A DNA stretch of 64,000 nucleotides, taken from NCBI GenBank assembly GCA_903842445.1, contig CAIMLT010000003.1, forward strand, positions 5,696 through 69,695, given 5' to 3'. The notes under the pieces were generated by a model. That model searched no databases, was not told the DNA's origin, and saw only the letters and a list, made by a program, of their open reading frames with translations. This stretch comes from an uncultured bacterium. Its GTDB lineage: Bacteria > Patescibacteriota > Minisyncoccia > Moranbacterales > UBA2206. Each line of letters starts with the position of its first letter. Within the stretch, counting starts at the first letter, position 1. The position numbers and the translations under genes were made by a program. This document shows, in pieces, positions 6,091 to 26,782 of the stretch.

Positions 6091-6122
6091 AATTTAATTA
6101 TACTTTATTTTTTACAATAAGC

Positions 6123-7052
6123 CTACTCAAACTTGCAAACAGCTTTCAACGCGCTTAAATCATCCGGAGAAAGCTGAGGATTTTCCATGTTTTGATCAGA
6201 GAGTAGATAATACATAATCGATTGCGGATCCTCGACATGTCCAACGCCTAAAGCATGTCCCAACTCATGCACAATCGTCAGGCGCAAATCGGCAAGTTGC
6301 TTAAACTGATACAAGCTGATCCCCTTGCCGTCATAGAGCCCTTTTTCAAATTCCCGTGAGCCGCCATATTTATTTTTGTATGTCGAAACATTAGCGTTAT
6401 ATTCATTCACAACTTTTTGCTCTTTTGAAACTAAAGCATTGGTTTTTCCAGCCAGACCATTCACTTCTGTCCGCTCTTTTTCGAGTTTATCGTATAATTC
6501 ATTAATTGTCTTCTTCTCTTTCGCTAGATCATTATACTCATCCTGCGATCCGCTATTTTTATTCCAATCCGCGACAGCTTTATTATAGTCCCTCAATTTT
6601 TTTTCATAAGCTACCACGTTGGCGTCATATTTTGCCATCTTCTTTTCATAGATTCCGGCTAAGTCCTCATATTGATTAGCAATTTTTTGGTGTGATATTT
6701 CCAACTGGTCTAAATTACTCGCCAATTTATCCGCCGCGTTCGAGGCAACCTGCCTCTCATCAAAAATCAAATTCAGCTTAAACTGAGCATCTGGCTTATA
6801 TTCAAATAAATTCTTCCCCGACTGCGTTTCCCAAATTTTTTCCGCCTCTCGAATCTCTGCCAAAAAATTATTCGCACTCAAATCAAACCTTGGATCAACT
6901 ATTCCAACAGCATATTGAAACGGCTTGGCACACGGCAAACCAATCCCGGTAAATTCCGAAACGGTTTCTCGCACGGAAGTTTTGTTTTGCAAAATTATCC
7001 CCCAAGCAGAAAAGAGAATTATAATAATGAAATATTGAAAAAATTTTTTCAT
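6123..7052 (-). CDS. secreted matrixin-like (M10) zinc metalloprotease with a coiled-coil region
   Basis: N-terminal signal/TM segment MKKFFQYFIIIILFSAWGIIL. HELGHALGVGH zinc site with Met-turn SIMYY near the C-terminus. Its ATG overlaps the stop of the upstream small-subunit gene (ATGA). Confidence 0.7.
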   Translation of the reverse strand: MKKFFQYFIIIILFSAWGIILQNKTSVRETVSEFTGIGLPCAKPFQYAVGIVDPRFDLSANNFLAEIREAEKIWETQSGKNLFEYKPDAQFKLNLIFDERQVASNAADKLASNLDQLEISHQKIANQYEDLAGIYEKKMAKYDANVVAYEKKLRDYNKAVADWNKNSGSQDEYNDLAKEKKTINELYDKLEKERTEVNGLAGKTNALVSKEQKVVNEYNANVSTYKNKYGGSREFEKGLYDGKGISLYQFKQLADLRLTIVHELGHALGVGHVEDPQSIMYYLLSDQNMENPQLSPDDLSALKAVCKFE

Positions 7053-7942
7053 CTTTTTTTTCTTTTGTCTTTTTTTTCTCTTTCTTCCAAATCATCTCTG
7101 AGGCCAAAAATCTCCGTCATATTTTGAAACTGTTCATCACTCATCATATTTTTTAGCATCGCACGCATAGCGGTTACATTTCCAGTTTCCCGAAGTCCGC
7201 GACAACCTTGGCACTGCGCCCTAGAACTTGGGCAAACTGCATTGCACCCACCCAGAATCATCGGACCAAAACAAGGTTTCTTGTCTAACAAAAGACATCG
7301 ATTACCTGCTTTTTTGCATTCCACACAAACCGGCTGATCGGGCAAGGTGGGAATTTCACCTTTGAGTAATTTCGGGATACACTTCAAAAACTCTTCACCA
7401 TTGATCGGACAACCCGGAAAAACAAAATCAACTTTTACAAAATTATTAATCTCACGAATTTCCGGGTTAGTAATCCCTTGTAAATATTTATAGACATGTT
7501 TTATCGTGCTCACTCCTTCGTGATAATTTTTCATCTCGGGGATTCCACCCATCGCTGCGCAATTTCCAAGCGCCACAAGCAGTTTCGCCCTTTTTCTGGC
7601 AGAAAGGAGTGTTTTTTCATTTTCCTTGGTTACCGGATTTCCCTCAACCAAAACTAAATCCAACATTCCGCCATCATCCTCCTCATCTTCAATCAAGCGA
7701 AAATCCACCAATTCAACTTGCTCTGTAAATTCCAAAAAGCGCACGCCAAGATCGAGAAGTACAAATTGGCAACCCTCGCAAGAAGTGAGGCTCACAATCG
7801 CCACACGCGGTTTTCCAGCCTCGACTTTCTTATTGGCTATTTTTGCCACTACGACTTTTTTTGTCTTAACTATTTTTTTAGCTTTAACTGCTTTAGCTCT
7901 CGTAGGTATTTTATTTTTTTCTTCGATTACTTTTATTTTCAT
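7049..7942 (-). CDS. [NiFe]-hydrogenase small subunit, group 3, with a lysine-rich N-terminal extension
   Basis: AIVSLTSCEGCQ proximal-cluster motif and a C-terminal Cys-rich region for additional FeS clusters (CVECKK...C...CNAVCP...CQGC). Roughly 45 K/A/V-rich residues precede the conserved core. Confidence 0.85.
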   Translation of the reverse strand: MKIKVIEEKNKIPTRAKAVKAKKIVKTKKVVVAKIANKKVEAGKPRVAIVSLTSCEGCQFVLLDLGVRFLEFTEQVELVDFRLIEDEEDDGGMLDLVLVEGNPVTKENEKTLLSARKRAKLLVALGNCAAMGGIPEMKNYHEGVSTIKHVYKYLQGITNPEIREINNFVKVDFVFPGCPINGEEFLKCIPKLLKGEIPTLPDQPVCVECKKAGNRCLLLDKKPCFGPMILGGCNAVCPSSRAQCQGCRGLRETGNVTAMRAMLKNMMSDEQFQNMTEIFGLRDDLEEREKKDKRKKR

Positions 7943-8032
7943 AAGAATAGTTTTATTTGTTTTATTTCTCTTTGTATTCTAACAGATTTAACCTGATTTT
8001 AAAAATCCGGCAAATTACTCTATACTTAGCTT

Positions 8033-9193
8033 ATGGAGTTTGAATTTCCCCTAAAACAAAATAAAGTTATTTTAGCGCTTGGTGGAGAATCCGCTGGCAA
8101 TTTTTCGGTTTGCAATAAGGGTAAAGTTTATTTTTCCAAAGATTTTGGCGATTTACTGGTTGAAAGTAACTTAGCAAATTATAAAAAGGCGGTCTTGAAT
8201 TATCTGAAAAAACATAAGTTTAAGCCTGAAATAATCCTAATTGATCTCCATCCGCTTTTTCACACAACCCTTTGGGGCAAAATGCTCACTAAACAATATA
8301 AAGCCGAATGCATCCAAGTCCAACATCACCACGCCCATATTTTTTCCTCTATCGGCGACAGAATATTGCAATCTGCAATCTACCAACTACCTGATAAATT
8401 CTACGCTCTAGCCATGGACGGAACGGGACTTGGAACAGACGGGAAGATTTGGGGAGGAGAGGTTTTTAAAATTAGTTGTCATTCCCGCGCAGGCGGGAAT
8501 CCAGTCTCATATAATTCAGTTTATAAACTAAATTTACCCTTACACGAGAATACAATAAACTATACTGTCGAAAGAATTGGGCATTTGGAAAATCAAATTT
8601 TGGTTGGTGGAGATTTAGCAATTCAAGAACCAGCGAGAATGTTAATTGGAATTCTAAGTAAATTCCTGAACAAATCTGAAATTTATAATCTAACTAAAAA
8701 ATATTATTCCAAAAACGAATTTGAGGTAATTTATAGCCAACTTAGACAAAATTTCAATTGCCTCGAAACTTCCAGCACCGGAAGAATTTTAGATGCCGTA
8801 TCGCTGCTCCTAGGCTTTTGCGGAAACGAGAGAAAATATAAACATGAACCGATTGATCTACTGGAAAAAAATTCCACTAAACCCTATGAACTTAAGCCAA
8901 TTATAGAAAATAATGTTTTATTAACTACGCCGCTGTTTAAATATTTGATTAAAAATCTGCATAAAGATAAAAAAAGACTCGCCGCCATGGCACAGCTTTA
9001 TCTTGCGCAGGGACTACTTAAGATAATTAAATTAGCTGGTAATTTTGACATTTTTATTTCCGGCGGAATTGCCAAAAATAAAATTATTTCTAAATGCTTA
9101 GAATCCAAAGGCGCCTACGCCAGTAAAATCATCCCTCGCGGCGACGCCGGACTTTCTTTCGGACAATTGGTTTATTATTTATTGAATTATTAA
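8033..9193 (+). CDS. hypF: HypF-like carbamoyltransferase, Kae1-like C-terminal domain only (no acylphosphatase, Zn-finger or YrdC domains)
   Basis: 386 aa with LALGGESAGNF, VQHHHAHIFS (the HypF QHHxAH motif as I recall it), AMDGTGLGTDGKIWGGE and RGDAGLSFGQ. It converges on hypE with overlapping stops. Confidence 0.55.
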   Translation: MEFEFPLKQNKVILALGGESAGNFSVCNKGKVYFSKDFGDLLVESNLANYKKAVLNYLKKHKFKPEIILIDLHPLFHTTLWGKMLTKQYKAECIQVQHHHAHIFSSIGDRILQSAIYQLPDKFYALAMDGTGLGTDGKIWGGEVFKISCHSRAGGNPVSYNSVYKLNLPLHENTINYTVERIGHLENQILVGGDLAIQEPARMLIGILSKFLNKSEIYNLTKKYYSKNEFEVIYSQLRQNFNCLETSSTGRILDAVSLLLGFCGNERKYKHEPIDLLEKNSTKPYELKPIIENNVLLTTPLFKYLIKNLHKDKKRLAAMAQLYLAQGLLKIIKLAGNFDIFISGGIAKNKIISKCLESKGAYASKIIPRGDAGLSFGQLVYYLLNY

Positions 9194-10248
9194 CAAATCC
9201 TCGGAATCAACTTCCCTCTCGGCACCTCAATTTTCTTAAGACTCCCAATATTTGTAGCTAAATATAAGCCTTTTTTCTCATTTTCTCGATTGGAAAACTT
9301 TTTCACAAACCCAATAACCTTAGCTTCTGGGTTGAATTTTTGCAAAATTTTAATAACTTTATCGGCATTTTCTTTGGCAACCGTCGCCACAAACCGACCT
9401 TCGGACGGAAAAGAGAACTTATCGATTCCCAAAAGATTTGAAAGCGCAACTGTTTCTTTGGCAAACGGTAATTTGCTTTCTTCAAGAATAATGCGGACTT
9501 TGGATTTTTCGGAAATTTCATTGAGCACCGCAGCTACTCCGCCGCGCGTCGGATCCTTGCAAGCTGTTAGATATTTCGCAACGCTTTGAATTTCTTTGGT
9601 GAGCGGCTGGCAATCACTTTTGATTTTGGTTTTATAATTAAATCTTTTGGAAAGAAGTGCGACGGCGTGCTCGCCAAGATTTCCGGAAGTAATGACAACA
9701 TCACCCGGTTTTGCACCATTGTTTGAAATAATATTTTCCGCAATTCCCACGCCAGAAGTCGTAATTTCAATTTTGTCGAGTTTGCCTTTTTCCGTAACTT
9801 TCGTGTCCCCGGTAACAATCGGCACGCCAGTAATTTTAGAAATCTGCCCAATCGATTGCATAATTTTTTTGAGATCCGCGATTGGAAAACCTTCTTCCAT
9901 CACCACGCTCAAAGAAATCCCGATTGGCACAGCGCCCATCACCGAAAGATCATTTATCGTCCCACAAATCGCGATTTTCCCGATGTCCCCACCCGGAAAA
10001 AAAATCGGATCAACAATAAAAGCATCTGTCGTAAAAACCAATTTCGATTTTCCCCCTCTCCTTAATAAGCCTGCCTGTCCGGTAGGCAGGGAGAGGGCTG
10101 GGGTGAGGTCAAAAACCGCCCCATCATCATTGGTATTTTTCCATTTTTTAGACCTCGGAAAACTTTTTCTAATTTCCGCAATCAACTCTTCGGATTTCCC
10201 GCCACCACCGCCATCTTCTAGCTCCACAAATTCTTTTTTATTATTCAT
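9190..10248 (-). CDS. hypE: hydrogenase maturation protein HypE (carbamoyl dehydratase)
   Basis: 352 aa ending in the HypE hallmark PRIC, with VDPIFFPGGDIGKIAICGTINDL and VTGDTKV. An in-frame insertion of about 10 aa coincides with the palindromic element at 10068-10092. Confidence 0.85.
   Translation of the reverse strand: MNNKKEFVELEDGGGGGKSEELIAEIRKSFPRSKKWKNTNDDGAVFDLTPALSLPTGQAGLLRRGGKSKLVFTTDAFIVDPIFFPGGDIGKIAICGTINDLSVMGAVPIGISLSVVMEEGFPIADLKKIMQSIGQISKITGVPIVTGDTKVTEKGKLDKIEITTSGVGIAENIISNNGAKPGDVVITSGNLGEHAVALLSKRFNYKTKIKSDCQPLTKEIQSVAKYLTACKDPTRGGVAAVLNEISEKSKVRIILEESKLPFAKETVALSNLLGIDKFSFPSEGRFVATVAKENADKVIKILQKFNPEAKVIGFVKKFSNRENEKKGLYLATNIGSLKKIEVPRGKLIPRIC
10068..10092. repeat. 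24-nt palindromic element (stem cctgcct / aggcagg), copy 1, in frame inside hypE
   Basis: agcctgcctgtccggtaggcaggga matches the copy at 12971-12994 at 24 of 25 nt in the same orientation. It encodes ALSLPTGQAGLL. Confidence 0.6.
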
Positions 10249-10275: not shown

Positions 10276-11322
10276 TTACACCTTAATGAAAAATGTAGGA
10301 AATATTTTTTTGAGTTGTTTTTCAATCTCAAATCCCTCGCAATGCCGCAAAACTCCAAGATACGATTGCAAACTCTTACTGAAAGATTCTACAAAAATCA
10401 AATCTTCCCGTAATAATTTGTGTTTCTGAGAATTTTTTTTGAATATTCTTCTTTTCGTTTTCGTTCGCAAAATCCGGTAATCAGAAAAGTTGACCATTCC
10501 TAGAAAATCAATGCCACTTGCCAGAGTTTTCAAAAAAACCTTATTTGGATGCAATTCCAGCTTCAGTTCATTGGATAAAAACTTTTCAATTTTTGGAATC
10601 TGATTTTCAAGTAAGCTTTTATCTTCCGACAAAAACACAAAATCATCGGCGTAGCGGAGATAATATTTGGCTTTCAGTTTATGTTTTGCAAATTGATCAA
10701 ATTTATTCATATAAATGTTGACGAATAATTGTGAAGTTAGGTTTCCAAGTGGCAAACCTGTATAAATTTTATTTTTGGTGGTAAAACTTTTTATAATATT
10801 TTCCAAAAGATTAATAATATTTTCATCTGGAATATATTCAGCTAGAATTTCCAACAAAATCTGATGATCCATATTAGCAAAAAACTTTTTAATGTCGCAT
10901 TTCAAAATCCAGCAAGTTTTGATATTATTTTTACTGACAATATGGGCATATTCGCGGAATTTATCAATGGCTTTATGTGTGCCTTTTTTGTTTCTGCAAG
11001 AATAGGAATCGGCAATGAAAGTTTTGTCAAAAAAAGGATAGAGAATTCTATATATGGCATGGTGCAAAAGTCGATCGCGCACGCTGGCCTTGTGAATGTC
11101 CCTGGGTTTTGGATCATTGATTTTGAAAGCTTGATAACCGCCGTGTTCATAGGTATGATTGAAAAGATCGCAGTGCAGTGAAAAAATATTATCCATCAGT
11201 TTCATTGAAAATTCTTGCACATCTTTTCTGTTTTTCTTGCCTTTTTCGAATTCTTGCCAAGCCAGAAGTAAGTTTTCTAAACAAATAATATTCTCAAAAT
11301 TATGACTCAATTGAATTTTCAT
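10276..11322 (-). CDS. diversity-generating retroelement reverse transcriptase
   Basis: 348-aa RT with catalytic YADD (LRYADDFVFL) and the DGR-type domain-4 motif GLPLGNLTSQLFVNIYM (SQ in place of the group II QG). There is no maturase/endonuclease domain. Avd, TR and VR lie alongside. Confidence 0.85.
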   Translation of the reverse strand: MKIQLSHNFENIICLENLLLAWQEFEKGKKNRKDVQEFSMKLMDNIFSLHCDLFNHTYEHGGYQAFKINDPKPRDIHKASVRDRLLHHAIYRILYPFFDKTFIADSYSCRNKKGTHKAIDKFREYAHIVSKNNIKTCWILKCDIKKFFANMDHQILLEILAEYIPDENIINLLENIIKSFTTKNKIYTGLPLGNLTSQLFVNIYMNKFDQFAKHKLKAKYYLRYADDFVFLSEDKSLLENQIPKIEKFLSNELKLELHPNKVFLKTLASGIDFLGMVNFSDYRILRTKTKRRIFKKNSQKHKLLREDLIFVESFSKSLQSYLGVLRHCEGFEIEKQLKKIFPTFFIKV

Positions 11323-11323
11323 A

Positions 11324-11713
11324 ATGATACTTCTACTCTTAAAGCCCCCCCCCAGAGGAGTGCCTGCTGTAATTATAAAAGAAAAAGAAACTTATACCTA
11401 TTGGCTAGCTTTGCATCGCAATTTCCCGAAAACTGAACGCTATGGACTTGGAAGAAGAATCGACCAGCTATTCCTGGAAATTCTTGAACTCAGTTTTACT
11501 GCTGCATATTTACCGGCTGATCCAAAAATAATCCTATTGGGAAAAATAATTTCTCGTCTTGATGTGCTTAAATTTTTCTCACAACTCGCTTGGGAAAATA
11601 AATTAATTCCTTCTGAAAAATATCTGGAACTTTCCCAAAAACTGGAAGAAATCGGTCGAATGTTTGGCGGCTGGAGAAAAGGACTTTTGGAAAAGAAAAC
11701 TCCTGCCAAATAA
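11324..11713 (+). CDS. avd: DGR accessory variability determinant (Avd-like four-helix-bundle protein)
   Basis: 129 aa. YTYWLALHRNFPKTERYGLGRR and the C-terminal EIGRMFGGWRKGLLEK resemble the Avd / 23S-rRNA-IVS protein family as I recall the Bordetella phage Avd ending. It is oriented opposite to the RT; the start codon is uncertain because a C9 tract lies at codons 8-10. Confidence 0.75.
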   Translation: MILLLLKPPPRGVPAVIIKEKETYTYWLALHRNFPKTERYGLGRRIDQLFLEILELSFTAAYLPADPKIILLGKIISRLDVLKFFSQLAWENKLIPSEKYLELSQKLEEIGRMFGGWRKGLLEKKTPAK

Positions 11714-11720
11714 GCAGGAG
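11700..11720. other. 7-bp hairpin (ctcctgc...gcaggag) overlapping the avd stop and flanking the 3' end of TR
   Basis: Perfect inverted repeat with a 7-nt loop lying between avd and TR. Confidence 0.35.
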
Positions 11721-11736
11721 AAAAACAGTAGTTTCA

Positions 11737-11845
11737 GAAGAACACCTGGTTGTCATCATTCCACCTATTCGTATCATCGACAGAGTTGGCATTGACGTTC
11801 CAACCATCGTCGTTCCAGTTACAATTCACCGCACGAAGCACACCG
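11737..11845 (-). repeat. DGR template repeat (TR)
   Basis: Near-identical to 12211-12319. In TR-sense (minus strand) it carries A at all 20 positions where VR differs, and it translates in the VR frame to NCNWNDDGWNVNANSVDDTNRWNDDN. Confidence 0.85.
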
Positions 11846-12106
11846 GCATTCTCGAGCAAAGAGCCATCCATTCCACTATCCTTCGAATGCTCTCCGGATT
11901 GTATCGCATTTGGGACATTAAAAGTCCGCCAGCTTTTTGCACCAATTCCTGTATTTTTTTGAAAAGATTATTTTCCATACTATTATGCAAGGCTTGCCCG
12001 GCACAACTCTCGCGAAAAATATCTTAAAGCCATGACACAAAAGCCGTAACCGTTGCGTATCACATGAGTTCATAAAAAGTATAGCAAAAAAATTTGAAAT
12101 AAAAAA

Positions 12107-12152
12107 TGACCCTTTGAATTTTTTTCGATTTTCGAGAAAATTCAAAGGGTCA
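12107..12152 (-). terminator. Rho-independent terminator of the DGR target gene (16-bp perfect stem followed by a T-run on the minus strand)
   Basis: tgaccctttgaatttt / aaaattcaaagggtca with a 14-nt loop. On the minus strand it is followed by ttttttatttc. Confidence 0.55.
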
Positions 12153-12170
12153 AAGTGACAAAGAATCAAA

Positions 12171-12184
12171 GGGACAAGTGTCCC
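12171..12184 (-). other. GC-rich hairpin (gggac aagt gtccc) immediately downstream of the VR and the target stop
   Basis: 5-6-bp GC stem with a 4-nt loop about 10 nt 3' of the stop. This is reminiscent of the cruciform/hairpin needed for DGR homing. Confidence 0.4.
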
Positions 12185-12189
12185 AGAGC

Positions 12190-12867
12190 TTAAGCGGCAA
12201 CAGGAACTCGGAAGAACACCTGGCGGACAGCACGCCACCCATCCGTATCATCGACAGAGCGGGCACGGACGTCCCAACCATCGCCGCACCAGCCACAAGG
12301 CACCGCACGAAGCACACCGTTTTTGTCCCTGATGTAGAAGATGTTGGCATAACCGTTGTTCAAAAGAACGCCGGCTTCACCATTCCGCTGCTTCTCCATC
12401 TGAGAGAACATTTCCGATAAGGTAGTTTCGGCTTTTGCTTCACCACCTATCTCGGCGATGATCAGATCGTCAACCGAGGCTTTTTTCAGTCTGGCACAGC
12501 GAAGTTCCTGCTCACCGATAGGAGTCTCAATTTTGCCATCTTCGCCAAGAAACCACTTCGTGAAATTATCGCCAAGGTAACTGATTTTGACATTAGCCTC
12601 TTTGCTCGTATCAACAATAAACTTATCACGAGCGATAAAATTCACAATTCTTGCTGGAATAGTGACGGTGTTGATCATTTCGAGCAGAATATTGATTATG
12701 CCCTCTGACCAACATTTCTCCTTTCGGAGAAATTTTTTGAATTCCGCAAACCACACTTGGCATGCCTCACCAGATAGTTTTTCCGCCAAATCGCAGATTG
12801 CTCCCAACATTTCTCTTGGAAGATCCACAATCTTACGAACTACTTCACCGAGCATGTCTTTTTTCAT
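12190..12867 (-). CDS. DGR target protein (variable C-terminal C-type-lectin-like region); no signal peptide
   Basis: 225 aa. The C-terminal VR-encoded segment GVLRAVPCGWCGDGWDVRARSVDDTDGWRAVRQVFF corresponds to TR-encoded GVLRAVNCNWNDDGWNVNANSVDDTNRWNDDNQVFF. Confidence 0.8.
   Translation of the reverse strand: MKKDMLGEVVRKIVDLPREMLGAICDLAEKLSGEACQVWFAEFKKFLRKEKCWSEGIINILLEMINTVTIPARIVNFIARDKFIVDTSKEANVKISYLGDNFTKWFLGEDGKIETPIGEQELRCARLKKASVDDLIIAEIGGEAKAETTLSEMFSQMEKQRNGEAGVLLNNGYANIFYIRDKNGVLRAVPCGWCGDGWDVRARSVDDTDGWRAVRQVFFRVPVAA
12211..12319 (-). repeat. DGR variable repeat (VR) at the 3' end of the target gene
   Basis: 20 substitutions relative to TR, all at TR-adenine positions. The 13-bp fully conserved 3' block (ccaggtgttcttc on the minus strand) fits an IMH-like end. 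Confidence 0.85.
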
Positions 12868-12970
12868 GGTCAGTCTCCTTTTTTCTTAAAAAATATTTGC
12901 TTCCAGCTAACCGACATGGTTTTGCCACAGCAGAAAAGATTCATTTTGAAACTAGATCCCCGTATTCACG

Positions 12971-12994
12971 AGCCTGCCTGCCGGTAGGCAGGGA
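12971..12994. repeat. 24-nt palindromic element, copy 2, about 105 nt upstream of the DGR target gene
   Basis: agcctgcctgccggtaggcaggga, a direct copy of the element inside hypE. Confidence 0.6.
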
Positions 12995-13165
12995 TGACAA
13001 TTTATAAAAACCCTTTCTGCTGTGGCAAATCACAAATATTAAAGAACTATCACTTAATAAAAAAGCTTCGCATATTTTCAGTTATATGTCAAACTAAATT
13101 GCCTTTTTTTGGCTTATGCAAAGGTTTTTATCGAAATTTACCAAGAAAAATTACAATTTTTGTCC

Positions 13166-14206
13166 TCAATTATCATATCTATACTCCACACTACAACTCC
13201 CCTCCCGTGAAACCATGCACGCACCTTGTGGATTATCCGGATTACACGCTTTCCCAAAAAGCGGACAATCTTTTGACGAAATAATCCCTTGCAAAACTTC
13301 GCCACATCGACACGCGCTCGGCTTGGTTTTTGTTTCTTTTTTAATTTTTGAAATCAAATCCCGATAAACAAATTCCGCATCATACTCACGATATTTTTTT
13401 CTAATTTTGAGTCCTGAATTTTTTATTTTTCCAAATCCGCGCCATGTGGCATCACTAATTTCAAAAACTTCCGCAATCATTTTTCTGGCTTTTGGATTGC
13501 CATCTTTCTTGACCAATCGCGAATAAGCATTTTCAACTTTTTTTTCGCCGGAAATAATTTGTGTAAGCAATTTATCAATCGCGATGAGCACATCTTCGCC
13601 GGTAAATCCGGCAATCACTTGCGGAATTTTAAATTGCGCGTAAATTTCTGTTCCGATAATCGCGCTAACATGCCCTGGGTTAATAAACCCATCAACTCTG
13701 ATTTTTTTATTTTGAAGCAGCGCTTCCATTGCCGGCGGAAAAAGTTTATGCGCAGAATAAACGATCAGCCCATTTCTAATCGCCCAAGCTGTCATCCCGG
13801 TCGTTGTTTCAAATCCCAGACCAAAAAAAACCAAATTCGGTTTTTCTTTTTTCATTTCGACCCCTTCAGTTATATCATAAACAATATTCACATCCGCGCC
13901 ATTTCTTCTGGCTTCTTCCAAGCTCATTAAATTTCCCGGAACTTGGATTGCGTCGCCATAAACCGCCACCGGAATTCCATGAAGCGCGAGACCAACCATA
14001 ACATCAATATCAGATTGATCAGTCACACAAACCGGACAACCCGGCCCAGAAACTAAAGTTATATTTTTTGGCAAAATATTTTTTATGCCATTTTCCGCAA
14101 TCGCCTCAGCATGCGTTCCGCAAAGCTCCATAAACCACAAAGGTCGCCCAATTTTTTCAGCTTTTTCGTGAATACTTTTTAAAAAATTTTTTAACTCACT
14201 GTTCAT
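13166..14206 (-). CDS. hypD: hydrogenase maturation protein HypD
   Basis: 346 aa with MELCGTHAE, GPGCPVCVT and a C-terminal CPLFGKACNP...GACMVSREGSC motif. Confidence 0.9.
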   Translation of the reverse strand: MNSELKNFLKSIHEKAEKIGRPLWFMELCGTHAEAIAENGIKNILPKNITLVSGPGCPVCVTDQSDIDVMVGLALHGIPVAVYGDAIQVPGNLMSLEEARRNGADVNIVYDITEGVEMKKEKPNLVFFGLGFETTTGMTAWAIRNGLIVYSAHKLFPPAMEALLQNKKIRVDGFINPGHVSAIIGTEIYAQFKIPQVIAGFTGEDVLIAIDKLLTQIISGEKKVENAYSRLVKKDGNPKARKMIAEVFEISDATWRGFGKIKNSGLKIRKKYREYDAEFVYRDLISKIKKETKTKPSACRCGEVLQGIISSKDCPLFGKACNPDNPQGACMVSREGSCSVEYRYDN

Positions 14207-14225
14207 TATTATTTTTTATCATCAC

Positions 14226-14339
14226 GACTTAAGCGTTCGTCCGGAAAAAGTCCGCACGTTCGTTTTTTTTGGCACCTTAAGGCTTTTGATAAAGCAAGAG
14301 AAGAAAAGTCAAAGTAATAAAATTACGCTTTAGTAATTT
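14226..14339. repeat. about 115-bp conserved intergenic element, copy 1 (between hypC and hypD)
   Basis: Roughly 80% identical to 19403-19520. The core is ttcgtccggaaaaagtccgcacRttcg followed by ggcttttgRtaaagcaagaRagaaaagYcaaag. Confidence 0.6.
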
Positions 14340-14345
14340 CAAAAA

Positions 14346-14564
14346 TCACACGCCAGCCTTAAGCTCTGTTTTCAAATACCCTTTCATTTCACTAGCATAA
14401 TCCGCATCCATCTTCTCAATCGCAAAACCCGCGTGCACCATCACATACTCACCAGCTCTCACTGAAACTAAAGAAATATTGATTTCTTTCTGGATCCCAT
14501 CAAAATCAACTGTTGCCAGTTGATTTTTGATAGAAATAATTTTTCCAGGAATAGCAAGGCACAT
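14346..14564 (-). CDS. hypC: hydrogenase maturation protein HypC
   Basis: 72 aa starting with the canonical MCLAIPGKII. Confidence 0.85.
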   Translation of the reverse strand: MCLAIPGKIISIKNQLATVDFDGIQKEINISLVSVRAGEYVMVHAGFAIEKMDADYASEMKGYLKTELKAGV

Positions 14565-14568
14565 ATTA

Positions 14569-15624
14569 TTATAATCTTGTATTATTTTTTATTTTCCCCG
14601 TAACTATTTTCCCCGCGTCTCTCACTAGTCTTGCTACCTCTCGATCAGTTAACACATAATCTAAAAACTCGCTTTTTTGGGCTTTTTTACTAATTTTTGA
14701 AGAAATAAAAAAAGTTCGGATATTTCTTGGATCAATTTTTTCCCGCTTGGCATCCGTAGTTTTAACATTTTTTATTATCTCATCTTCTCTGTTTTTATCT
14801 TCGTCTTTTAAGTTTATAATTCTTTCAAAACCTAAAGCAAAAAATAATTTTTCTAGATTTTGCTCTGGGGTTATGTTTTTTATTTGTTCTTTTATTTTAT
14901 CTAAAATTCCAAAGTCAAAAACTGCGACAGAAAGCTTTTTCAGATCAGATAGATCGCTCGCGATTTTCTCAAGATTATTTTGATCTGTGAGCGCCGCCGT
15001 AGGACACGCTCTGACACACTCACCGCAAAAACTGCAATCTAAAACTTTTTCATATGGCGTCCCCACAATCACATCTCCCGCGCGATTATTAAAGCCAAAC
15101 TTCTTCTCTGGACAAATGCTTATACACCTTCGACATTCCACGCAAAATTCCGAATTTCGAGAAACACACGGATTATCATTTTCCACTACAACGCGCGACC
15201 AATTGTCATGCACTAAATTCAATTCTTCTTTGCTCGTCATCTCGCCACGTCTCGGCACAAAATGAAAGTTTTCAATCCTATATTCTTCCGCCAATTTCTG
15301 GAGTTCACACATCCGATTTTTCTTGCAAGTCACGCATTTCCCCGCGTGATCCGCCCAAAGAAGCTCCAGATTAATCCGCCGAGCCTTTTGGACTTTTTCG
15401 CTTTCGATGAACACTTCCAAACCTTCGCAAACTTTTGTCGTGCAAGAAGTCACTAACTTTTCCGTCTTATTTGTTTCCACCAAGCAGAGCCGACATGCTC
15501 CTCCACGTGAAAGTCCCTCAAATGAACACAGCGTCGCAACCGGAATATTTTTCCGCCGACAAACATCCAGAATAGTTTCTCCGTTTTTTACTGTATATTT
15601 TTTATTATTGATTTTAATTTGCAT
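14569..15624 (-). CDS. HoxU / NuoG-N-terminal-like iron-sulfur protein (2Fe-2S plus two 4Fe-4S ferredoxin motifs)
   Basis: N-terminal 2Fe-2S cysteines (CSFEGLSRGGACRLC), then CVECRRCISICP and CSFCGECVRACP, followed by a C-terminal extension of about 120 aa. Confidence 0.8.
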   Translation of the reverse strand: MQIKINNKKYTVKNGETILDVCRRKNIPVATLCSFEGLSRGGACRLCLVETNKTEKLVTSCTTKVCEGLEVFIESEKVQKARRINLELLWADHAGKCVTCKKNRMCELQKLAEEYRIENFHFVPRRGEMTSKEELNLVHDNWSRVVVENDNPCVSRNSEFCVECRRCISICPEKKFGFNNRAGDVIVGTPYEKVLDCSFCGECVRACPTAALTDQNNLEKIASDLSDLKKLSVAVFDFGILDKIKEQIKNITPEQNLEKLFFALGFERIINLKDEDKNREDEIIKNVKTTDAKREKIDPRNIRTFFISSKISKKAQKSEFLDYVLTDREVARLVRDAGKIVTGKIKNNTRL

Positions 15625-16135
15625 GTTCTATAAATTTTATAACCTTATTTAATAAACCACTTACTGGCTCGTCAGATTTAAGAAATATTTTACTTTCCGG
15701 CATATGTGCATAATCACATCTCATCTTTTCATACTTTCTCTGTCTATCATGATGACATCTATTTCTTTCTCTGTTTTCAAATCGAATCCGCCTTTCTTTC
15801 TCATCAATTTCAAGAACTATCGTATAAATACTAACCCCATACTTCACTTTCCATGTCTCAAAAATCCTTCCCTCTGGTTCAAAGTTGAAAGTAGATTCTA
15901 TAATTACATCAATTCCGCGATTAATATTTTCTTCAGCAAGATCCATGATTGCCTTAACTGAAGGATACCCTAATTTTATACTATCCTCTAGTGTCGACAT
16001 CCTCATCGAATTATACATTGATTCCTTGACTGAATCCTTATGTAAACAAAAAATGCCAATCTTCTCAGATAACTTATCGGCCAAAGTAGTTTTTCCAACC
16101 CCAGGAACTCCGCAAATTATAATAAGTTTACTCAT
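15614..16135 (-). CDS. P-loop kinase / NTPase (AAA_33-like) of unknown function
   Basis: 173 aa with the Walker A motif ICGVPGVGKTTLADKL. It overlaps the hoxU-like start by 11 nt and lacks the HypB GTPase motifs. Confidence 0.55.
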   Translation of the reverse strand: MSKLIIICGVPGVGKTTLADKLSEKIGIFCLHKDSVKESMYNSMRMSTLEDSIKLGYPSVKAIMDLAEENINRGIDVIIESTFNFEPEGRIFETWKVKYGVSIYTIVLEIDEKERRIRFENRERNRCHHDRQRKYEKMRCDYAHMPESKIFLKSDEPVSGLLNKVIKFIEHAN

Positions 16136-16142
16136 AAGTTGA

Positions 16143-17375
16143 TCAGTCTTTTAATATTTCCAATTTATCCACTGCGTCGCGCGTTGCCACCGCCGCAAAT
16201 TTTCCCAAGGGGCAAAAAGTTGTGCTTTCTAGTGTCCACAAAATATCTTGCATTGCTTCCTTATCTCTTTGCGAAATTTCGCCATCTGCTAAACGTTCGA
16301 TAATCTCATTGAGTCGAAAAGTTCCTTCGCGACAAGGAATACATTTTCCACAAGATTCGCGCCGAAAAAATCCAGTCCAGGATAATAGCAAATCATAGAT
16401 ATTTATTGATTTATCTACAACTAAAATTGTCCCTGACCCAAGGGGAATATTATTATTTTTTCCATAGTCTAGTTTTTCATCTAATTCTTTTTCAGTTGCC
16501 AATCTTCCACTTGCTCCACCGACTTGCGCAAACCAAAAATCCTTCCCTCTCGGAAGTCCTCTGCCTAAAGTTTCTATCGCTTCACGAATTGTAATTCCAG
16601 TTGGCGCTTCAATAACGCCTTTATTTTTAACCGCACCACCAAGAATAAAAATTTTTGTGCCCGGACTATTTTTTGATCCGATCGCCGCATATTTTTTTCC
16701 CCCATTTTGAATTATGAAAGGAATATTGGCCACCGTTTCTGCATTATTTATCACTGTTGGCTTTCCAAAAAGTCCCTTTTCAGTTGGATAGGGTGGACGA
16801 ATTTTCGGCTCGCCACGATTACCCTCAATAGAATTTATGAGTGCCGTTTCTTCTCCGCAAATATAAGCACCGGCGCCAGAAAAAATTTCGATTTCTAGGA
16901 AATATTTTGATCCTAATATTTTTTCTCCCAGAAATTTATTCTTCTGCGCTTCCAAAATTGCATTTTCCAAAATATCTTTTTGCGTTTCATAATTTCCATT
17001 AATATAGACATAGGCTTTTTTTGCTCCAATAGTCAAAGCAGCTATAATTATTCCTTCGAGAAGTAAGTGCGGATTATTTTCCACAATCATTCGGTCTTTA
17101 TACGTTCCAGGTTCTGATTCATCAAAATTGCAAATAAAATATTTTTCTTTGATAGAATTTTTTGCCACTACCTCCCATTTCTGTCCAGTTGGAAAACCAG
17201 CCCCGCCGCGACCACAAAGACTTGATGATTTAATTTCCCCTAGGGCTTTTTGCTGATTCATTTTTTCAATGAATTTTTTTAGAGCGGAGTAACCACCCAC
17301 ACCCAAATAATCCTCAATTTTAAGTGGATTAATCTTACCCCAATAATTGGTCAGAATTTTTATATCTTTCATCAT
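16143..17375 (-). CDS. HoxF / NuoF-like NAD(P)H-binding flavoprotein subunit
   Basis: 410 aa with GRGGAGFPTGQKWE, FDESEPGTYKDR, GAGAYICGEETALI and C-terminal 4Fe-4S cysteines (CGKCIPCREG). Confidence 0.85.
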   Translation of the reverse strand: MMKDIKILTNYWGKINPLKIEDYLGVGGYSALKKFIEKMNQQKALGEIKSSSLCGRGGAGFPTGQKWEVVAKNSIKEKYFICNFDESEPGTYKDRMIVENNPHLLLEGIIIAALTIGAKKAYVYINGNYETQKDILENAILEAQKNKFLGEKILGSKYFLEIEIFSGAGAYICGEETALINSIEGNRGEPKIRPPYPTEKGLFGKPTVINNAETVANIPFIIQNGGKKYAAIGSKNSPGTKIFILGGAVKNKGVIEAPTGITIREAIETLGRGLPRGKDFWFAQVGGASGRLATEKELDEKLDYGKNNNIPLGSGTILVVDKSINIYDLLLSWTGFFRRESCGKCIPCREGTFRLNEIIERLADGEISQRDKEAMQDILWTLESTTFCPLGKFAAVATRDAVDKLEILKD

Positions 17376-18863
17376 TTATGTTCCGCTATATTTAACGGGC
17401 ATTGAATATTTACCAGATATTTCGTTCGTTAAGTAATAAAATATATTATCCTTATCTTCTTTTACAACAATATCACCAACAGATTCACGCCCAAGCATGC
17501 TTCTCCATCTTCCACTTTCTAAGTCAATAAAAATTTTCTTATCGCTATAGAAAATATACTTTTCATCAATTGGATGAAAGTCGCTTTGCTTATTTAATGG
17601 ATATTTATTTATCACTCTAAATACTGGATTACTTTTATTGTAAGGATCTTGAGAGATTATAAATACATCATTCATGCTATATTTATCACGATTTGGGTTT
17701 TTGATTCTTAAACTTTCCAAATCAATTCCCACCTCATTTGCATATACTAAACAATATATTTTTTTATTAGAATAAGTAACATTGCTACAATCATTTAATT
17801 TTGGGAAATTTTCTATGTTAGGTTCTATGCTGTTATCAGATACGAACTCCGCCACATTGAGAAGCACATATATCTTTCTATTTTTATCATAATAAAGCTT
17901 GTCTTTTTCATCATCCCAAGAGAATCCCTCTGGAAGAATTTCCTTACCACCATAGCTAAATAGCTTCTTCCTAAATGGAGCTTTTCTGTACACCTCTCTA
18001 TATTTTTTTGATTCAACATCAAATAAAATAAGCACCACATCTTCCGAAGATTCATCGTCATATTGACAGGTCAAATATTTTTCACTAACAGACCATTCGC
18101 ATTTTTCAGGACAAATATGGGAACTAGACTCATGCAACTTCTTTTTCGCCACACAGACATCTAAAATTGGCGTTAAATCGCTCGTCTTATATATATATTT
18201 CTCGAAATTAGGCTTGGTTTTCTTGAAATCAACATCAGCTAAGAAATACGATCCCTTGGGAGAAATAAACTCAAAAGCTAAAAAATTATGCAATTCTGAA
18301 TTATTTCTATCAAAAGTCCTGAGAACATTCCTCTCTGAACCGTCTATTTTACTCACCACAATTGAAGATTTGCTATTGCTAGACTCAACTCCGTTGTCAT
18401 ATTCAATATAATATTCTAAGTATATAAATTTAGCATCTGATTTGATAACATCGTTAAACTCGTACTTCTGATTATATTCTATTTTATATTCCTTCTCTTG
18501 ATTATACCCTGTCGATCCACTTAAGAGTTGTATCCCTAGAGCAACTATGGCCAAAGATGCAGAGCCAATCAGAAATCTTTTTTTAAATTTGTAAAAAAAA
18601 TCTGCTCTATATTTTAAGATTATAAAAATCAATGTAAGCTCAATGAGTAAAAATGAGTAGTAAAATAAAAAAAATGGTTCAAATATACCTCCGGCAACGC
18701 CAAACATATAAATAATTGTTCCGGCACCAAGAAGAGACATCTCGCCACCAAACACATCTCCTATCTCAAGAAGTAGCCCTGTTAGATAAACCACAGAAGA
18801 AAAATCAACAAACAGACAAATGTACACAAGCACGGAAAAGAAAAATATTTTTATATTTTTCAT
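17376..18863 (-). CDS. hypothetical membrane protein (four N-terminal TM helices plus a large soluble domain) within the hox operon
   Basis: 495-aa ORF with hydrophobic N-terminal segments. Its stop abuts the hoxF-like ATG with zero gap. Confidence 0.55.
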   Translation of the reverse strand: MKNIKIFFFSVLVYICLFVDFSSVVYLTGLLLEIGDVFGGEMSLLGAGTIIYMFGVAGGIFEPFFLFYYSFLLIELTLIFIILKYRADFFYKFKKRFLIGSASLAIVALGIQLLSGSTGYNQEKEYKIEYNQKYEFNDVIKSDAKFIYLEYYIEYDNGVESSNSKSSIVVSKIDGSERNVLRTFDRNNSELHNFLAFEFISPKGSYFLADVDFKKTKPNFEKYIYKTSDLTPILDVCVAKKKLHESSSHICPEKCEWSVSEKYLTCQYDDESSEDVVLILFDVESKKYREVYRKAPFRKKLFSYGGKEILPEGFSWDDEKDKLYYDKNRKIYVLLNVAEFVSDNSIEPNIENFPKLNDCSNVTYSNKKIYCLVYANEVGIDLESLRIKNPNRDKYSMNDVFIISQDPYNKSNPVFRVINKYPLNKQSDFHPIDEKYIFYSDKKIFIDLESGRWRSMLGRESVGDIVVKEDKDNIFYYLTNEISGKYSMPVKYSGT

Positions 18864-18888
18864 ATTTTTTATTGTTTAATAATTATTT

Positions 18889-19341
18889 CTATATCCACTC
18901 CGCAAAAATTTTATATATAGAGCTTGCTGTGACCCTCTCATAAACTTTCCTATTGACAATGACGATTGGTCCATCTCCGCAACGCCCAAGACAACTGATT
19001 TTTTTCAATCTTACTTTTGGATTAAATTTATCTCCAACTCTAATCCGAAAATGGTTTTCGATCTCCCGGATGACATTAGTTGATTGACCTAAATTGCAAT
19101 CGCCTCCTGAGCAAACCTTAATCTCCAAATTCGCCGGTTTTTTAGTCTCAACTAAATCATAAAAGCTAGCTGTTTCATAAATCTTAGTGATTGGAAATTC
19201 AAAATACTCAGCAATCTTCTGGGAATCTTTTTCACAGATATAACCAAAATTCTTGCTGATTTTCTTTAGCGCTAAAAGCAAATTCTGCGCTACCGGATCA
19301 AACTCTAGCAATATTTTTTCAACTGTAATATTGTTTCTCAT
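18889..19341 (-). CDS. HoxE / NuoE-like thioredoxin-fold 2Fe-2S subunit
   Basis: 150 aa with CSGGDCNLGQ...CLGRCGDGP cysteine spacing. Confidence 0.8.
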   Translation of the reverse strand: MRNNITVEKILLEFDPVAQNLLLALKKISKNFGYICEKDSQKIAEYFEFPITKIYETASFYDLVETKKPANLEIKVCSGGDCNLGQSTNVIREIENHFRIRVGDKFNPKVRLKKISCLGRCGDGPIVIVNRKVYERVTASSIYKIFAEWI

Positions 19342-19402
19342 ATTTGCATTATACCATGTTAAAAATAAAAACTGAAACTCTTGTTCCAGTTTTTAATATT
19401 CA

Positions 19403-19520
19403 GACTTATGCATTCGTCCGGAAAAAGTCCGCACATTCGTTTCTCTTAGCATACAGAGGCTCTTGGTAAAGCAAGAAAGAAAAGCCAAGGCAAGGAAAAC
19501 ACGCTTTTAGGATTTTTTTT
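19403..19520. repeat. about 115-bp conserved intergenic element, copy 2 (between fba and the hoxE-like gene)
   Basis: Homologous to 14226-14339. On the minus strand it lies upstream of the hoxE-like start. Confidence 0.6.
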
Positions 19521-19565
19521 TGGGCGAATGCGTAAGTCCTGATATGATCAATTTAGCTATGCGTT

Positions 19566-20429
19566 CTAGGCCTTCCCGTCACTACCAAAAATTTTTATTT
19601 TATATTTAACAGTTTCTTTGACAGCGTCTCGCGCGCCTCCCAGAAGTTTTCGTAAATCAAAACCCAACTCGCCCTGATTATTCACTGAGTTAATTAAGCT
19701 ATTCATAAAAGCAATTTGAATCGCTGTAGCAACATTAAAACAACTAACCCCATTTTTAATAGCTTCCGCCACTCGACCGCTTTCCCAATCTGATGCGCCG
19801 TGCAAAACAAAAGGCAGTTGGCAACTTTTATTAATCATTGCCATTCGATCAAAATCTGGCTCGGCTCTTTCCTTGAGAAATCCATGAGCATTTCCGATTG
19901 CCACCGCCAACGCGTCAATTCCCGTCTCTTCCACAAAATTCTTGGCCTGAGCCGGATCAGTCATATATTTATCCCAATCTATATCCTCCATCTGAGCTTC
20001 TCCCAAATAGGGCACGTTACCCAGTTCTCCCTGCACTTCTACTCCTTTTTCATGACAAAAATCAACTACCTTTTTAGTAATTTCCAGATTATCCGAAAAA
20101 ACTTTCCGCGATCCATCATACATTACAGAAGTGAAACCGATAGCCACGGCCCTTTGAATTATTTCAAAGCTTTTCCCGTGGTCCAAGTGAATTCCAATTG
20201 GAATTTCCGACGCATAAAACTCGGCGTCGTTTTTGACTAGATTATAAATTAATCTGCCCCCGGAATATTCCATTACTTTTTCCGTAATCTGAATAATAAC
20301 CGGCGAGCGCATTTCTTTCGCCCCTTCCACAATTGCTCGGGTTGTTTCCAAGTTTACCGTATTAAAAGCACCCACGGCATACCCGCCTTCCTTGGCTTTT
20401 GTTAAAATTTCCTTGACTGAAGCAATCAT
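19566..20429 (-). CDS. fba: fructose-bisphosphate aldolase class II
   Basis: 287 aa with a GYAVGAFN start and HLDHG metal site. Confidence 0.85.
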   Translation of the reverse strand: MIASVKEILTKAKEGGYAVGAFNTVNLETTRAIVEGAKEMRSPVIIQITEKVMEYSGGRLIYNLVKNDAEFYASEIPIGIHLDHGKSFEIIQRAVAIGFTSVMYDGSRKVFSDNLEITKKVVDFCHEKGVEVQGELGNVPYLGEAQMEDIDWDKYMTDPAQAKNFVEETGIDALAVAIGNAHGFLKERAEPDFDRMAMINKSCQLPFVLHGASDWESGRVAEAIKNGVSCFNVATAIQIAFMNSLINSVNNQGELGFDLRKLLGGARDAVKETVKYKIKIFGSDGKA

Positions 20430-25713: not shown

Positions 25714-26751
25714 TTATACTCCTCTTAGATATTCTGCCGCGTCTTCTGGACTGATCGTGATAATCTCAATTCCGGTCGAAACTTCAAACCCCGCCCAAAT
25801 GTTTAGTTTTGGTAAAATTTCAATATGCCAATGATAGTGCGGGTAATCCTTTCCGTCGCATGGAGATGTGTGGATATAAAAATTAAAATCTGGATTATTC
25901 AATGCTTTGTCCAATTTGGCAATCACTTTCTGCAGTGCTTCTCCGCCGGATATCTTTTCCGCCTCCGTCATTCTTTCGAAATATGGCTTGTGCTTTTTGG
26001 GCATAACCCACATCTCGAAATTGGCTCGCGCAGCAAATGGACAAAAAACCAAAAAATCATCATTCTCAAAAACAAGTCTTTTTTGCGCCTCCTTCTCCCA
26101 TTCCAGCATCGCACAATAGACGCAATGTTTGCTTCCTTGATAATACTGTTCTGCTCCATCTAGCTCAGATTTTACATAGGGAGAAATCACCGGAATCGCC
26201 ATCAATTGGGAATGTGGATGCGGAATCGATGCTCCGGCGCTTTTTCCATGATTATGAAAGATATCAATATAGTTGACGGATTTTTTGTTCATCAGATCAA
26301 TGTATCGCGATTGATAGGCATCCAAAAGTTCCGCCACCAAAATCGGTTCCATCCTACCAAGATGCTTCTTATGATCTCTCGTTACAATCACTTCGTGATA
26401 GCCAATACTATCCATCAAAAAATACGGCCCCTCTTCCTTGTACGTAATTCGTCCTCCAGTCGGTCGGGAAAAAGCCGGATATTTATTGGGAAAAACCCGC
26501 AAACTCCAATCGTCATCTCCTGTTCCATAGAGCAAGACATCCTTTTCTTGTCCAGAGGCCACCGGATCACAAAATAAGCAATTGGCCACATCGCGTTCAC
26601 TTTCATCTTCCGTTTCCTTTTTGGCAAATTCATCTGGACGTTTTGCGCGAATAGTCGAAACCACCACCCAATCTCCGGTGATTAAATCTTGACGCAACTC
26701 TGTTGGTTTTGTTTTGTTTTGCTTTGTTTCCAAGAAATTCTTTTTTATCAT
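25714..26751 (-). CDS. galT: galactose-1-phosphate uridylyltransferase
   Basis: 345 aa with the N-terminal CLFCDP zinc motif and the HIT-like HPHSQ active site. Confidence 0.75.
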   Translation of the reverse strand: MIKKNFLETKQNKTKPTELRQDLITGDWVVVSTIRAKRPDEFAKKETEDESERDVANCLFCDPVASGQEKDVLLYGTGDDDWSLRVFPNKYPAFSRPTGGRITYKEEGPYFLMDSIGYHEVIVTRDHKKHLGRMEPILVAELLDAYQSRYIDLMNKKSVNYIDIFHNHGKSAGASIPHPHSQLMAIPVISPYVKSELDGAEQYYQGSKHCVYCAMLEWEKEAQKRLVFENDDFLVFCPFAARANFEMWVMPKKHKPYFERMTEAEKISGGEALQKVIAKLDKALNNPDFNFYIHTSPCDGKDYPHYHWHIEILPKLNIWAGFEVSTGIEIITISPEDAAEYLRGV

Positions 26752-26782
26752 TATTTACGCAAATGCGCAAATCCTGTTATTT

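Follow-up and report, generated by a model that had tools for sequence, protein, structure and literature searches.

Two related stretches of the 64,000-nt window (the whole stretch of DNA that was analysed), here called copies A and B, probably belong to an undescribed family of MITE-like, non-coding palindromic insertions of Moranbacteria/Patescibacteria (CPR), their adjacency to hydrogenase genes being incidental. Homologous copies occupy unrelated intergenic sites in independent assemblies (nhmmer E values of 1e-21 to 1e-41), and family copies score 105 to 150 bits against a covariance model of the repeat. The element is 134-141 nt long. Intact copies have a closing stem of 29-30 bp that encloses an interior of about 80 nt, conserved in sequence and not in structure. 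The literature searched held no description of such elements in CPR, and nothing relevant on MITEs or inverted repeats in Patescibacteria, Parcubacteria or Moranbacteria. For annotation, the repeat upstream of two hydrogenase genes is to be read as an insertion, which removes a tempting false lead; the signals of hoxE adjoin it.

Two copies in the window and their neighbouring genes

The features of the window are given below with their coordinates and strand.

14225-14360, plus strand: copy A, located between hypC and hypD, chimeric and structurally dead
14225-14253, plus strand: left arm of copy A, B-like in type and including the invariant core (14236-14257)
14333-14360, plus strand: right arm of copy A, of L009 type according to alignment with the hypC-hypD element of L009, and overlapping the end of hypC according to the hypC translation
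19348-19356, minus strand: extended -10 element TGGTATAAT, which precedes the ATG of the hoxE-like gene by 6 nt
19366-19395, minus strand: intrinsic terminator from a terminator scan, CTGGAAC...GTTTCAG followed by a T-run, separating copy B from hoxE
19401-19541, plus strand: copy B, an intact palindromic element of 141 nt, located between the stop codon (19566) and the terminator of fba
19401-19430, plus strand: left arm of copy B, containing the invariant core (19413-19434) and pairing with 19510-19541
19510-19541, plus strand: right arm of copy B, GGAT9GGGCGAATGCGTAAGTCCTG, of which 19521-19541 had been left out in the earlier note
26749-26776, minus strand: probable remnant of a third copy, outer stem only, AGGATTTGCGCATTTGCGTAAAT, in a glycosyltransferase-galT spacer

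The two-copy repeat is genuine and lies where the earlier note had placed it, with about 80% identity over about 95 nt and a common 22-mer. A repeat search of the window aligned A and B over 94 nt without gaps at 78% identity, and a pairwise alignment gave a column identity of 82%. In the window, the 22-mer (TTCGTCCGGAAAAAGTCCGCAC) has exactly two sites, 14236-14257 and 19413-19434, and no third one even if 3 mismatches are allowed; it gave 0 matches in 100 shuffles. Against the covariance model, copy A scores 105 bits and copy B 137 bits. While the locations held, the ends had to be revised. Copy B reaches 19541, 21 nt past its first assigned end, as its right arm pairs with the left one. Copy A extends from 14225 to 14360, but its likeness to B stops from about 14320. 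The direct repeat pointed out at the outset, GTCCGG-A5-GTCCGC, does exist and makes up the inner portion of the hairpin's left arm.

Both copies are located directly 5' of hydrogenase-related genes, as had been observed: copy A of hypD (13166-14206) and copy B of a HoxE/NuoE-like gene (18889-19341), both of these genes being on the minus strand. The earlier note had favoured an operator or promoter for an H2- or redox-responsive regulator, or a structured 5' UTR. A cis-regulatory element common to hydrogenase genes, of one of these types or a riboswitch, would agree with this position, with the related element found at hypC-hypD in one relative (locus L009) and with the core direct repeat (GTCCGG-N5-GTCCGC), a possible binding site for a dimer. 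However, a terminator and an extended -10 element stand between copy B and hoxE, and both are conserved. The terminator hairpin and its T-run are also present in the loci of relatives L008, L009, L011 and L019, where TGGTATAAT is found at an equal distance from the ATG. TGGTATAAT is likely the true hoxE promoter, judging from this arrangement, and its position fits a leaderless hoxE transcript. With these two signals in between, copy B belongs to the 3' UTR of fba and not to a structured 5' UTR of hoxE.

Promoter scans of the element itself also argue against a regulatory role. No sigma-70-like promoter was found in A or B on either strand. A sigma-54 candidate (TGGC...TTGC) was rejected because its GG-to-GC spacing is 14-15 where 12 is expected; the stretch also differs between A and B. 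A known structured RNA, for which the earlier note had proposed an Rfam search, did not emerge: a scan of the whole window against Rfam 15 gave no family at the gathering threshold, and E-value scans of copy B and of both copies in locus L003 returned chance miRNA and snoRNA matches far below gathering scores. For the interior, RNAalifold detected no conserved fold, whichever strand was used.

Filled and empty sites in other Moranbacteria

Eight copies at 6 sites were found in roughly 210 kb of non-redundant Moranbacteria DNA, a copy number that looks low. In L003, two copies (L003a and L003b) flank the ABC ATPase gene of an HlyD/MacB (MacAB-type) operon, so that both spacers are filled; L022 and L023 are recoveries of the same contig. 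Further copies are present in L024/L025, in the glycosyltransferase-galT spacer of L011/L012/L013 and in the hypC-hypD spacer of L009. Counted per genome, the window has two dispersed copies plus the probable remnant, and L003/L022 has two copies. The remnant carries a single mismatch to the arm consensus, where 0.14 such matches are expected in the window. It can form an 8-bp hairpin (z -4.0), and its spacer is the one that holds a full-length copy in L011.

Sites without the element are equally informative. The fba-hoxE spacer lacks copy B in L008, L009, L019 and L011, with unchanged gene order and NuoF-like proteins that are 87, 80, 77 and 76% identical, respectively. At hypD, an upstream element is found among the relatives in L009 only, and the hypC-hypD spacer of L011 is empty, with just 13 nt. 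The MacA/B spacers are empty in L026-L030 (12 and 17 nt). About 70 extra nt accompany the element at the filled MacAB sites, so the insertion history is not simple. The genes flanking the elements form syntenic housekeeping operons in all relatives.

An exclusive tie to hydrogenase genes is thus contradicted by the copies in the HlyD/MacB operon (L003/L022) and at glycosyltransferase-galT (L011), and conservation in relatives by the four empty fba-hoxE spacers. Copies at unrelated loci and absence from relatives are the two findings that the earlier note had itself named as evidence against a regulatory element. The regulatory explanation is largely refuted and we consider it highly improbable. 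The fallback put forward at the time, a small repeat that had spread within the locus, was essentially right, except that the repeat is limited neither to this locus nor to this genome.

Wider searches with the exact core gave no copies in GTDB representative genomes, the one match, in a GC-rich Polyangiaceae genome, being due to chance. Viral contigs gave unrelated matches or none, and phage and plasmid sequences gave no blastn match. Metagenome contigs gave six matches, including one true homologue, L003.

Sequence comparison of the copies suggests that they do not evolve independently. L003a is 83% identical to L003b, at the other site of the same genome, and only 68% identical to L024, at the same site in a relative whose permease is 85% identical. 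Concerted evolution, in which copies within a genome are homogenised by recombination or gene conversion, is the best explanation. Concerning the insertion itself, the flanks of copy B may carry a 4-5-bp AT-rich duplication (ATAT or AATAT), a weak signal. At the other copies, no clear or consistent target-site duplication was seen in pairs of filled and empty sites. Neither an autonomous element or IS with the same arms (in about 365 kb of loci examined) nor a candidate transposase or recombinase (in the loci examined) was found.

Covarying arms, strand bias and related elements

Terminal inverted repeats are present in the six intact copies, in which 21-24 of 29 stem positions are Watson-Crick pairs; in copy B, the 29 pairs comprise 24 Watson-Crick and 5 G·U. 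In the stem alignment, 86% of cells are paired, vs 30-51% when the partner is slid. A covariation analysis, as the earlier note had suggested, bears out the closing stem: both sides have changed in a compensatory manner in 14 of the 29 pairs, and the observed values were reached by none of 500 shuffles. Hairpin stability corresponds to z-scores of -5.9 to -7.7.

The two strands are not equivalent. Folded as RNA, copy B reaches -52.6 kcal/mol on the plus strand (z -5.9) and -37.7 kcal/mol on the minus strand (z -2.5). The antisense strand of L003a is also the more stable one (-55.4 vs -47.0 kcal/mol for the sense strand); in L009 and L003b, the sense strand overall folds equally well or better. 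Counted over the stems of all six intact copies, G·U cells number 20 for the gene-antisense strand vs 4 for the sense strand, which corresponds to about 15 distinct events vs 4 (one-sided binomial p about 0.01). A general mutational cause of this bias was rejected, because the background GC3 skew (+0.23 on the sense strand) predicts the opposite and no G·U strand bias is seen in the other palindrome families of these loci. In addition, all copies have one orientation relative to the genes, at all 6 sites. Together, uniform orientation and antisense-favouring G·U pairs hint at a single-stranded intermediate or at an antisense RNA. The bias provides a testable handle on how the elements are mobilised or used.

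The interior contains a conserved block, TTAGCA-N13-15-(TG)GTAAAGC, with a vague likeness to -35 and extended -10 elements. TTAGCA / TGGTAAAGC was rejected as a promoter since the spacer is too short and the -7 T is missing. The element has no conserved ORF, and short frames through the core differ among copies. One such frame (...VRTFSG...) was discarded, as neither frame nor ends are conserved; the differences between A and B in it, 2 synonymous and 2 non-synonymous, are uninformative. One 50-aa gene call lies inside the element in L022 and is not conserved.

The strand bias raises the question of a small structured RNA family transcribed antisense to the neighbouring genes, for instance an antisense regulator or the RNA partner of a protein, with the long hairpin and its G·U pairs as the functional form. 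Such a family would account for G·U pairs that go against the mutational skew, for the compensatory changes, for the greater antisense stability in B and L003a and for the shared orientation, and the interior block could be viewed as its promoter. Yet the left arm is not preceded by a conserved promoter, nor the right arm followed by a terminator. The block lacks the critical -7 T, and a start within it would yield a transcript without the left arm. The folding of the sense strand in L009 and L003b and the lack of an Rfam family do not favour it either. Finally, polymorphic presence, a chimera and a remnant are the behaviour of a repeat, unlike that of housekeeping sRNA genes. We regard this explanation as unlikely.

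The MITE-like insertion family remains the preferred reading. Its elements would insert into short spacers between co-directional genes, mobilised in trans by some enzyme, and would move or be maintained by way of a single-stranded form, the gene-antisense strand being the one that folds. They would be passively co-transcribed with the host operon, copy B representing an intact insertion in the fba 3' UTR. In classical MITEs, the terminal repeats are the best-conserved part. Here, conservation lies in blocks of the interior, and the arms vary and covary; such a pattern is more typical for a structured molecule with a function. Uniform orientation and the G·U strand bias are also unexpected for a purely double-stranded, TIR-driven selfish element. 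A CPR-specific class of strand-specific hairpins is a tentative possibility, of lower probability. They would be either single-stranded DNA substrates of a structure-recognising recombinase (attC-like logic outside integrons) or dispersed antisense hairpin RNAs. If true, such a class would account for arms that covary, for the single orientation and for antisense G·U pairs that oppose the mutational skew.

The DNA version of this idea is a substrate for recombination or transposition, recognised by the structure of one strand, like attC sites, IS200/IS605, REPIN/RAYT or HUH and tyrosine-recombinase targets. It can be compared with the attC sites of integrons, such as the repeats of Vibrio cholerae (about 120-130 bp); in attC sites, it is the folded bottom strand that is recombinogenic. 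Both are imperfect palindromes of similar length (about 140 nt for the element), at 3' ends of co-directional genes and in a single orientation. Structure is kept while arm sequence varies, the strand complementary to the coding one is that which folds preferentially, and copies of the same genome are similar in sequence. The resemblance is in logic only. None of the copies carries at its ends the core sites of attC, RYYYAAC and GTTRRRY with its invariant GTT; GTT/AAC was found at neither end of B, L003a, L003b, L024, L009 or L011. Moreover, the interior loop of 80 nt is conserved in sequence, the neighbours are conserved operons and not cassette arrays, and no integrase (IntI), RAYT or TnpA gene was seen in the loci examined. 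If the genes are co-oriented with replication, the favoured strand would be the leading-strand template, a strand that IS200/IS605 elements do not use. On this comparison, such a substrate appears improbable.

Closer parallels are provided by MITEs and palindromic repeats of other bacteria, namely Correia/NEMIS of Neisseria, ERIC/IRU of enterobacteria, and RUP and BOX of Streptococcus pneumoniae. These are non-coding, of about 100-150 bp, with long terminal inverted repeats able to form hairpins. They insert into operon spacers, are co-transcribed, show presence/absence polymorphism and leave copies that are decayed or partial. The present element differs by its CPR host, by arms that covary across subfamilies, by its uniform orientation and antisense G·U bias, and in that no target duplication or parent IS was found. 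The comparison is by description only, and we know of no sequence relationship with any of these families. REPIN/REP sequences, mobilised by RAYT, are likewise non-autonomous intergenic repeats that form hairpins, presumably active in single-stranded form, with compensatory stem changes. Yet they are shorter, GC-rich, nearly all stem and present in hundreds of copies, whereas the element is AT-rich and low in copy number, with a large interior that is unstructured; no RAYT gene was seen.

Copy A, a chimera at the hypC-hypD site

Copy A combines a B-like left arm and interior with a right arm from an older hypC-hypD element. Its left arm is 90% identical to that of B vs 41% to that of L009, while its right arm is 35% identical to B vs 86% to L009. 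As only 9 of 29 stem positions are Watson-Crick pairs, copy A is unable to form the hairpin, and its fold is not superior to that of shuffled sequences (z -0.97 and -2.0). It would descend from an older element at this site, whose hypD-proximal two-thirds may have been overwritten by B-like sequence, with destruction of the hairpin.

In the streamlined genomes of CPR/Moranbacteria, there is at least one family of hairpin-forming insertions, and apparently there are several. They occupy the spacers of operons, undergo recombination among themselves and can even provide the end of a gene. The right arm of copy A overlaps hypC (14346-14564, minus strand) and supplies its last four codons (KAGV) and its stop codon.

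Anatomy of the repeat and its gene neighbourhood

The two similar stretches reported in an earlier note on this DNA are indeed present, as seen by a sequence check and pairwise alignment. A repeat search of the window aligns copies A and B over 94 nt without gaps (78% identity), and column identity in the pairwise alignment is 82%. The 22-mer TTCGTCCGGAAAAAGTCCGCAC occurs in the window only at 14236-14257 and 19413-19434, with up to 3 mismatches tolerated, and 0 of 100 shuffles contained a match. The surrounding genes are all on the minus strand, in the order tpiA, fba, [copy B], HoxE/NuoE-like, 495-aa ORF, NuoF-like, AAA kinase, HoxU-like, hypC, [copy A], hypD. The nearest relatives of the NuoF-like protein are named Candidatus Moranbacteria or Parcubacteria (CPR/Patescibacteria).

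Genes flanking the two copies
19566-20429, minus strand: fba
18889-19341, minus strand: HoxE/NuoE-like gene
14346-14564, minus strand: hypC
13166-14206, minus strand: hypD

Copy B is longer than the ~115 bp first attributed to the element. A stem of 29-30 bp joins its left arm (19401-19430) to a right arm at 19510-19541 and encloses an interior of ~80 nt. The folding energy is -52.6 kcal/mol on the plus strand (z -5.9) and -37.7 on the minus strand (z -2.5). Copy A shares its left arm with B and is similar in the interior; from ~14320 onwards the two diverge. Folding of copy A is not significant (z -1 to -2).

In a model-based alignment of seven copies, both sides of the closing stem have changed in 14 of the 29 pairs, and standard pairs fill 86% of cells versus 30-51% when the partner is shifted by 1-3 columns. 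These observed values were reached by 0 of 500 shuffles, a figure that overstates significance since the pairs were counted on the structure that the model itself supplies and the copies are related to one another. What still makes the stem convincing is the control with a shifted partner, and how strongly the arms of L009 and L011 differ in sequence (L-numbers denote homologous or orthologous loci from other contigs, mainly of Moranbacteria relatives). The interior contains conserved sequence blocks; no conserved fold was found there on either strand.

Distribution of the element and the hydrogenase genes

A search for a 20-mer core in GTDB representative genomes gave no copy except one chance match in a GC-rich genome, and a scan of JGI metagenomes yielded a single true homologue, L003. 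Orthologous loci were retrieved via protein look-ups, and ~365 kb were then searched with an nhmmer profile and a covariance model.

Members of the repeat family
Copy B, window 19401-19541: fba-hoxE spacer
Copy A, window 14225-14360: hypC-hypD spacer
L003a and L003b, L003 3344-3483 and 2416-2555: flanking the ABC ATPase gene of a HlyD-MacB operon (same contig as L022 and L023)
L024 (= L025), 9781-9921: same ATPase-permease spacer as in L003, in a relative with an 85% identical permease
L011 (= L012, L013), 5702-5842: glycosyltransferase-galT spacer
L009, 9233-9366: hypC-hypD spacer
In addition, a probable arm-like remnant, window 26749-26776: glycosyltransferase-galT spacer

The remnant has 1 mismatch to the arm consensus (0.14 chance matches expected) and forms an 8-bp hairpin (z -4.0).

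Copy B is located after the fba stop codon and before the terminator (19366-19395), and thus lies in the fba 3' UTR. It is absent from the fba-hoxE spacer in four relatives (L008, L009, L011 and L019), where the fba 3' end and the terminator hairpin with its T-run are kept. In the window and in these four loci, TGGTATAAT, an extended -10 element, is found exactly 6 nt 5' of the hoxE-like ATG, and no Shine-Dalgarno region is visible at this start (19339-19356 in the window, minus strand). Together, these two features would imply a conserved leaderless hoxE transcript. The hypC-hypD spacer of L011 measures 13 nt only. Similarly, the MacAB spacers of L026-L030 are just 12 and 17 nt long, and the same spacers are filled with elements in L003 and L024. 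These empty orthologous spacers identify the element as an insertion with presence/absence polymorphism.

The two copies had been proposed to form a shared hydrogenase operator, promoter or 5' UTR. This proposal does not hold, because copies occur at loci unrelated to hydrogenases and are missing from orthologous spacers. The hydrogenase-regulatory reading is rejected; relatives devoid of copy B retain both the terminator and TGGTATAAT. The fallback of the earlier note, a repeat element that spread, is retained and now extends to the MacAB operon and the glycosyltransferase-galT spacer.

Chimerism, strand asymmetry and classification

Judging from sequence comparison, the copies undergo concerted evolution, with greater similarity inside one genome than between genomes at a shared site: the identity of L003a is 83% to L003b (same genome) versus 68% to L024 (same site, other genome). 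Copy A is a chimera, with a B-like left arm (90% identity to B, 41% to L009) and an L009-like right arm (35% to B, 86% to L009) and a switch point at about alignment columns 90-100. Its right arm also contains the end of hypC, with the last four sense codons and the stop; the HypC tails are different in L009 and L011.

The orientation relative to the flanking genes is identical at six of six insertion sites. In the six intact copies, G·U pairs occupy 20 stem cells when the strand antisense to these genes (plus in the window) is read, versus 4 for the sense strand, corresponding by our own count to ~15 and 4 distinct events (one-sided binomial p ~0.01). The background skew is opposite to this bias, with third codon positions of the sense strand rich in G and T (GC3 skew +0.23), and no consistent G·U bias is observed in other palindromic families of the same loci. 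Uniform orientation and antisense G·U bias suggest that the hairpin matters as a single strand carrying the antisense sequence. The small sample makes this a lead; the single strand in question may be an RNA antisense to the genes or the leading-strand template as ssDNA.

A more unusual mechanism behind the strand-specific hairpin seems rather unlikely. The logic of a one-strand hairpin resembles that of integron attC sites, but their core sites, cassette context and integrase are all absent from the loci of the element. Among known kinds, the nearest is that of short palindromic repeats in intergenic regions, or MITEs (Correia, ERIC, RUP). Like MITEs, the element has inverted repeats, is small and non-coding, and occurs as dispersed copies with insertion polymorphism; no parent IS was found in the ~365 kb of loci. 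As to a target-site duplication, ATAT or AATAT may flank copy B, and none of consistent form is seen at the other copies. No match was obtained in Rfam or to a phage or plasmid, and full-text literature on MITEs or inverted repeats in Patescibacteria, Parcubacteria or Moranbacteria yielded nothing relevant. The observation is confirmed, and the element is a repeat family of a known kind, palindromic repeat or MITE, of which it is itself a new member.

Other features of the same loci

A complete diversity-generating retroelement (10276-12867, minus strand) lies between hypD and hypE.

Components of the diversity-generating retroelement
10276-11322, minus strand: reverse transcriptase (Pfam RVT_1)
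11734-11845, minus strand: template repeat
12190-12867, minus strand: 225-aa ORF, the target (no Pfam match)
12208-12319, minus strand: variable repeat, at the 3' end of the 225-aa ORF

Of the 21 mismatches between template and variable repeats, 20 are at adenines of the template copy. The retroelement is missing at the hypD-hypE position in L009 and L019, and a 23S_rRNA_IVP (Avd-like) gene occupies its position in L011. A different long hairpin, outside the A/B repeat family, is located between hypD and the target gene (12921-13029; 22-bp stem, 65-nt loop, -50.5 kcal/mol, z -6.1; three G·U pairs, on the sense strand).

The 495-aa ORF between the HoxE-like and NuoF-like genes (17376-18863, minus strand) has no Pfam match. 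Since these two genes are direct neighbours in L008, L009 and L019, the ORF is another lineage-specific insertion in the hox cluster. In L011, a 1065-aa ORF, also devoid of a Pfam match, follows nuoF instead. An AAA_33/zeta-toxin-like kinase gene (15614-16135, minus strand) lies within the hox cluster between the NuoF-like and HoxU-like genes, with an 11-nt overlap with its neighbour; the same position is kept in L009 and L010.

In relatives, at least 3-4 further families of 100-170-nt palindromic inserts occupy intergenic spacers, some of them the same ones (fba-hoxE, glycosyltransferase-galT, hoxE-nuoF).

Further palindromic inserts
L011: 9643-9813
L019: 40-174 and 5931-6065
L019: 2894-3041 and 17275-17422
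L008: ~3087-3180, and L009: ~5650-5750

With several palindromic families in the same spacers, these appear to be hot spots for insertion in Moranbacteria. In L016, a ~4.3-kb island (5304-9539) containing an MNT/HepT toxin-antitoxin pair, a radical SAM gene, a Bro-N gene and others is found between fba and hoxE, so that this spacer stands out once more as a site of integration.
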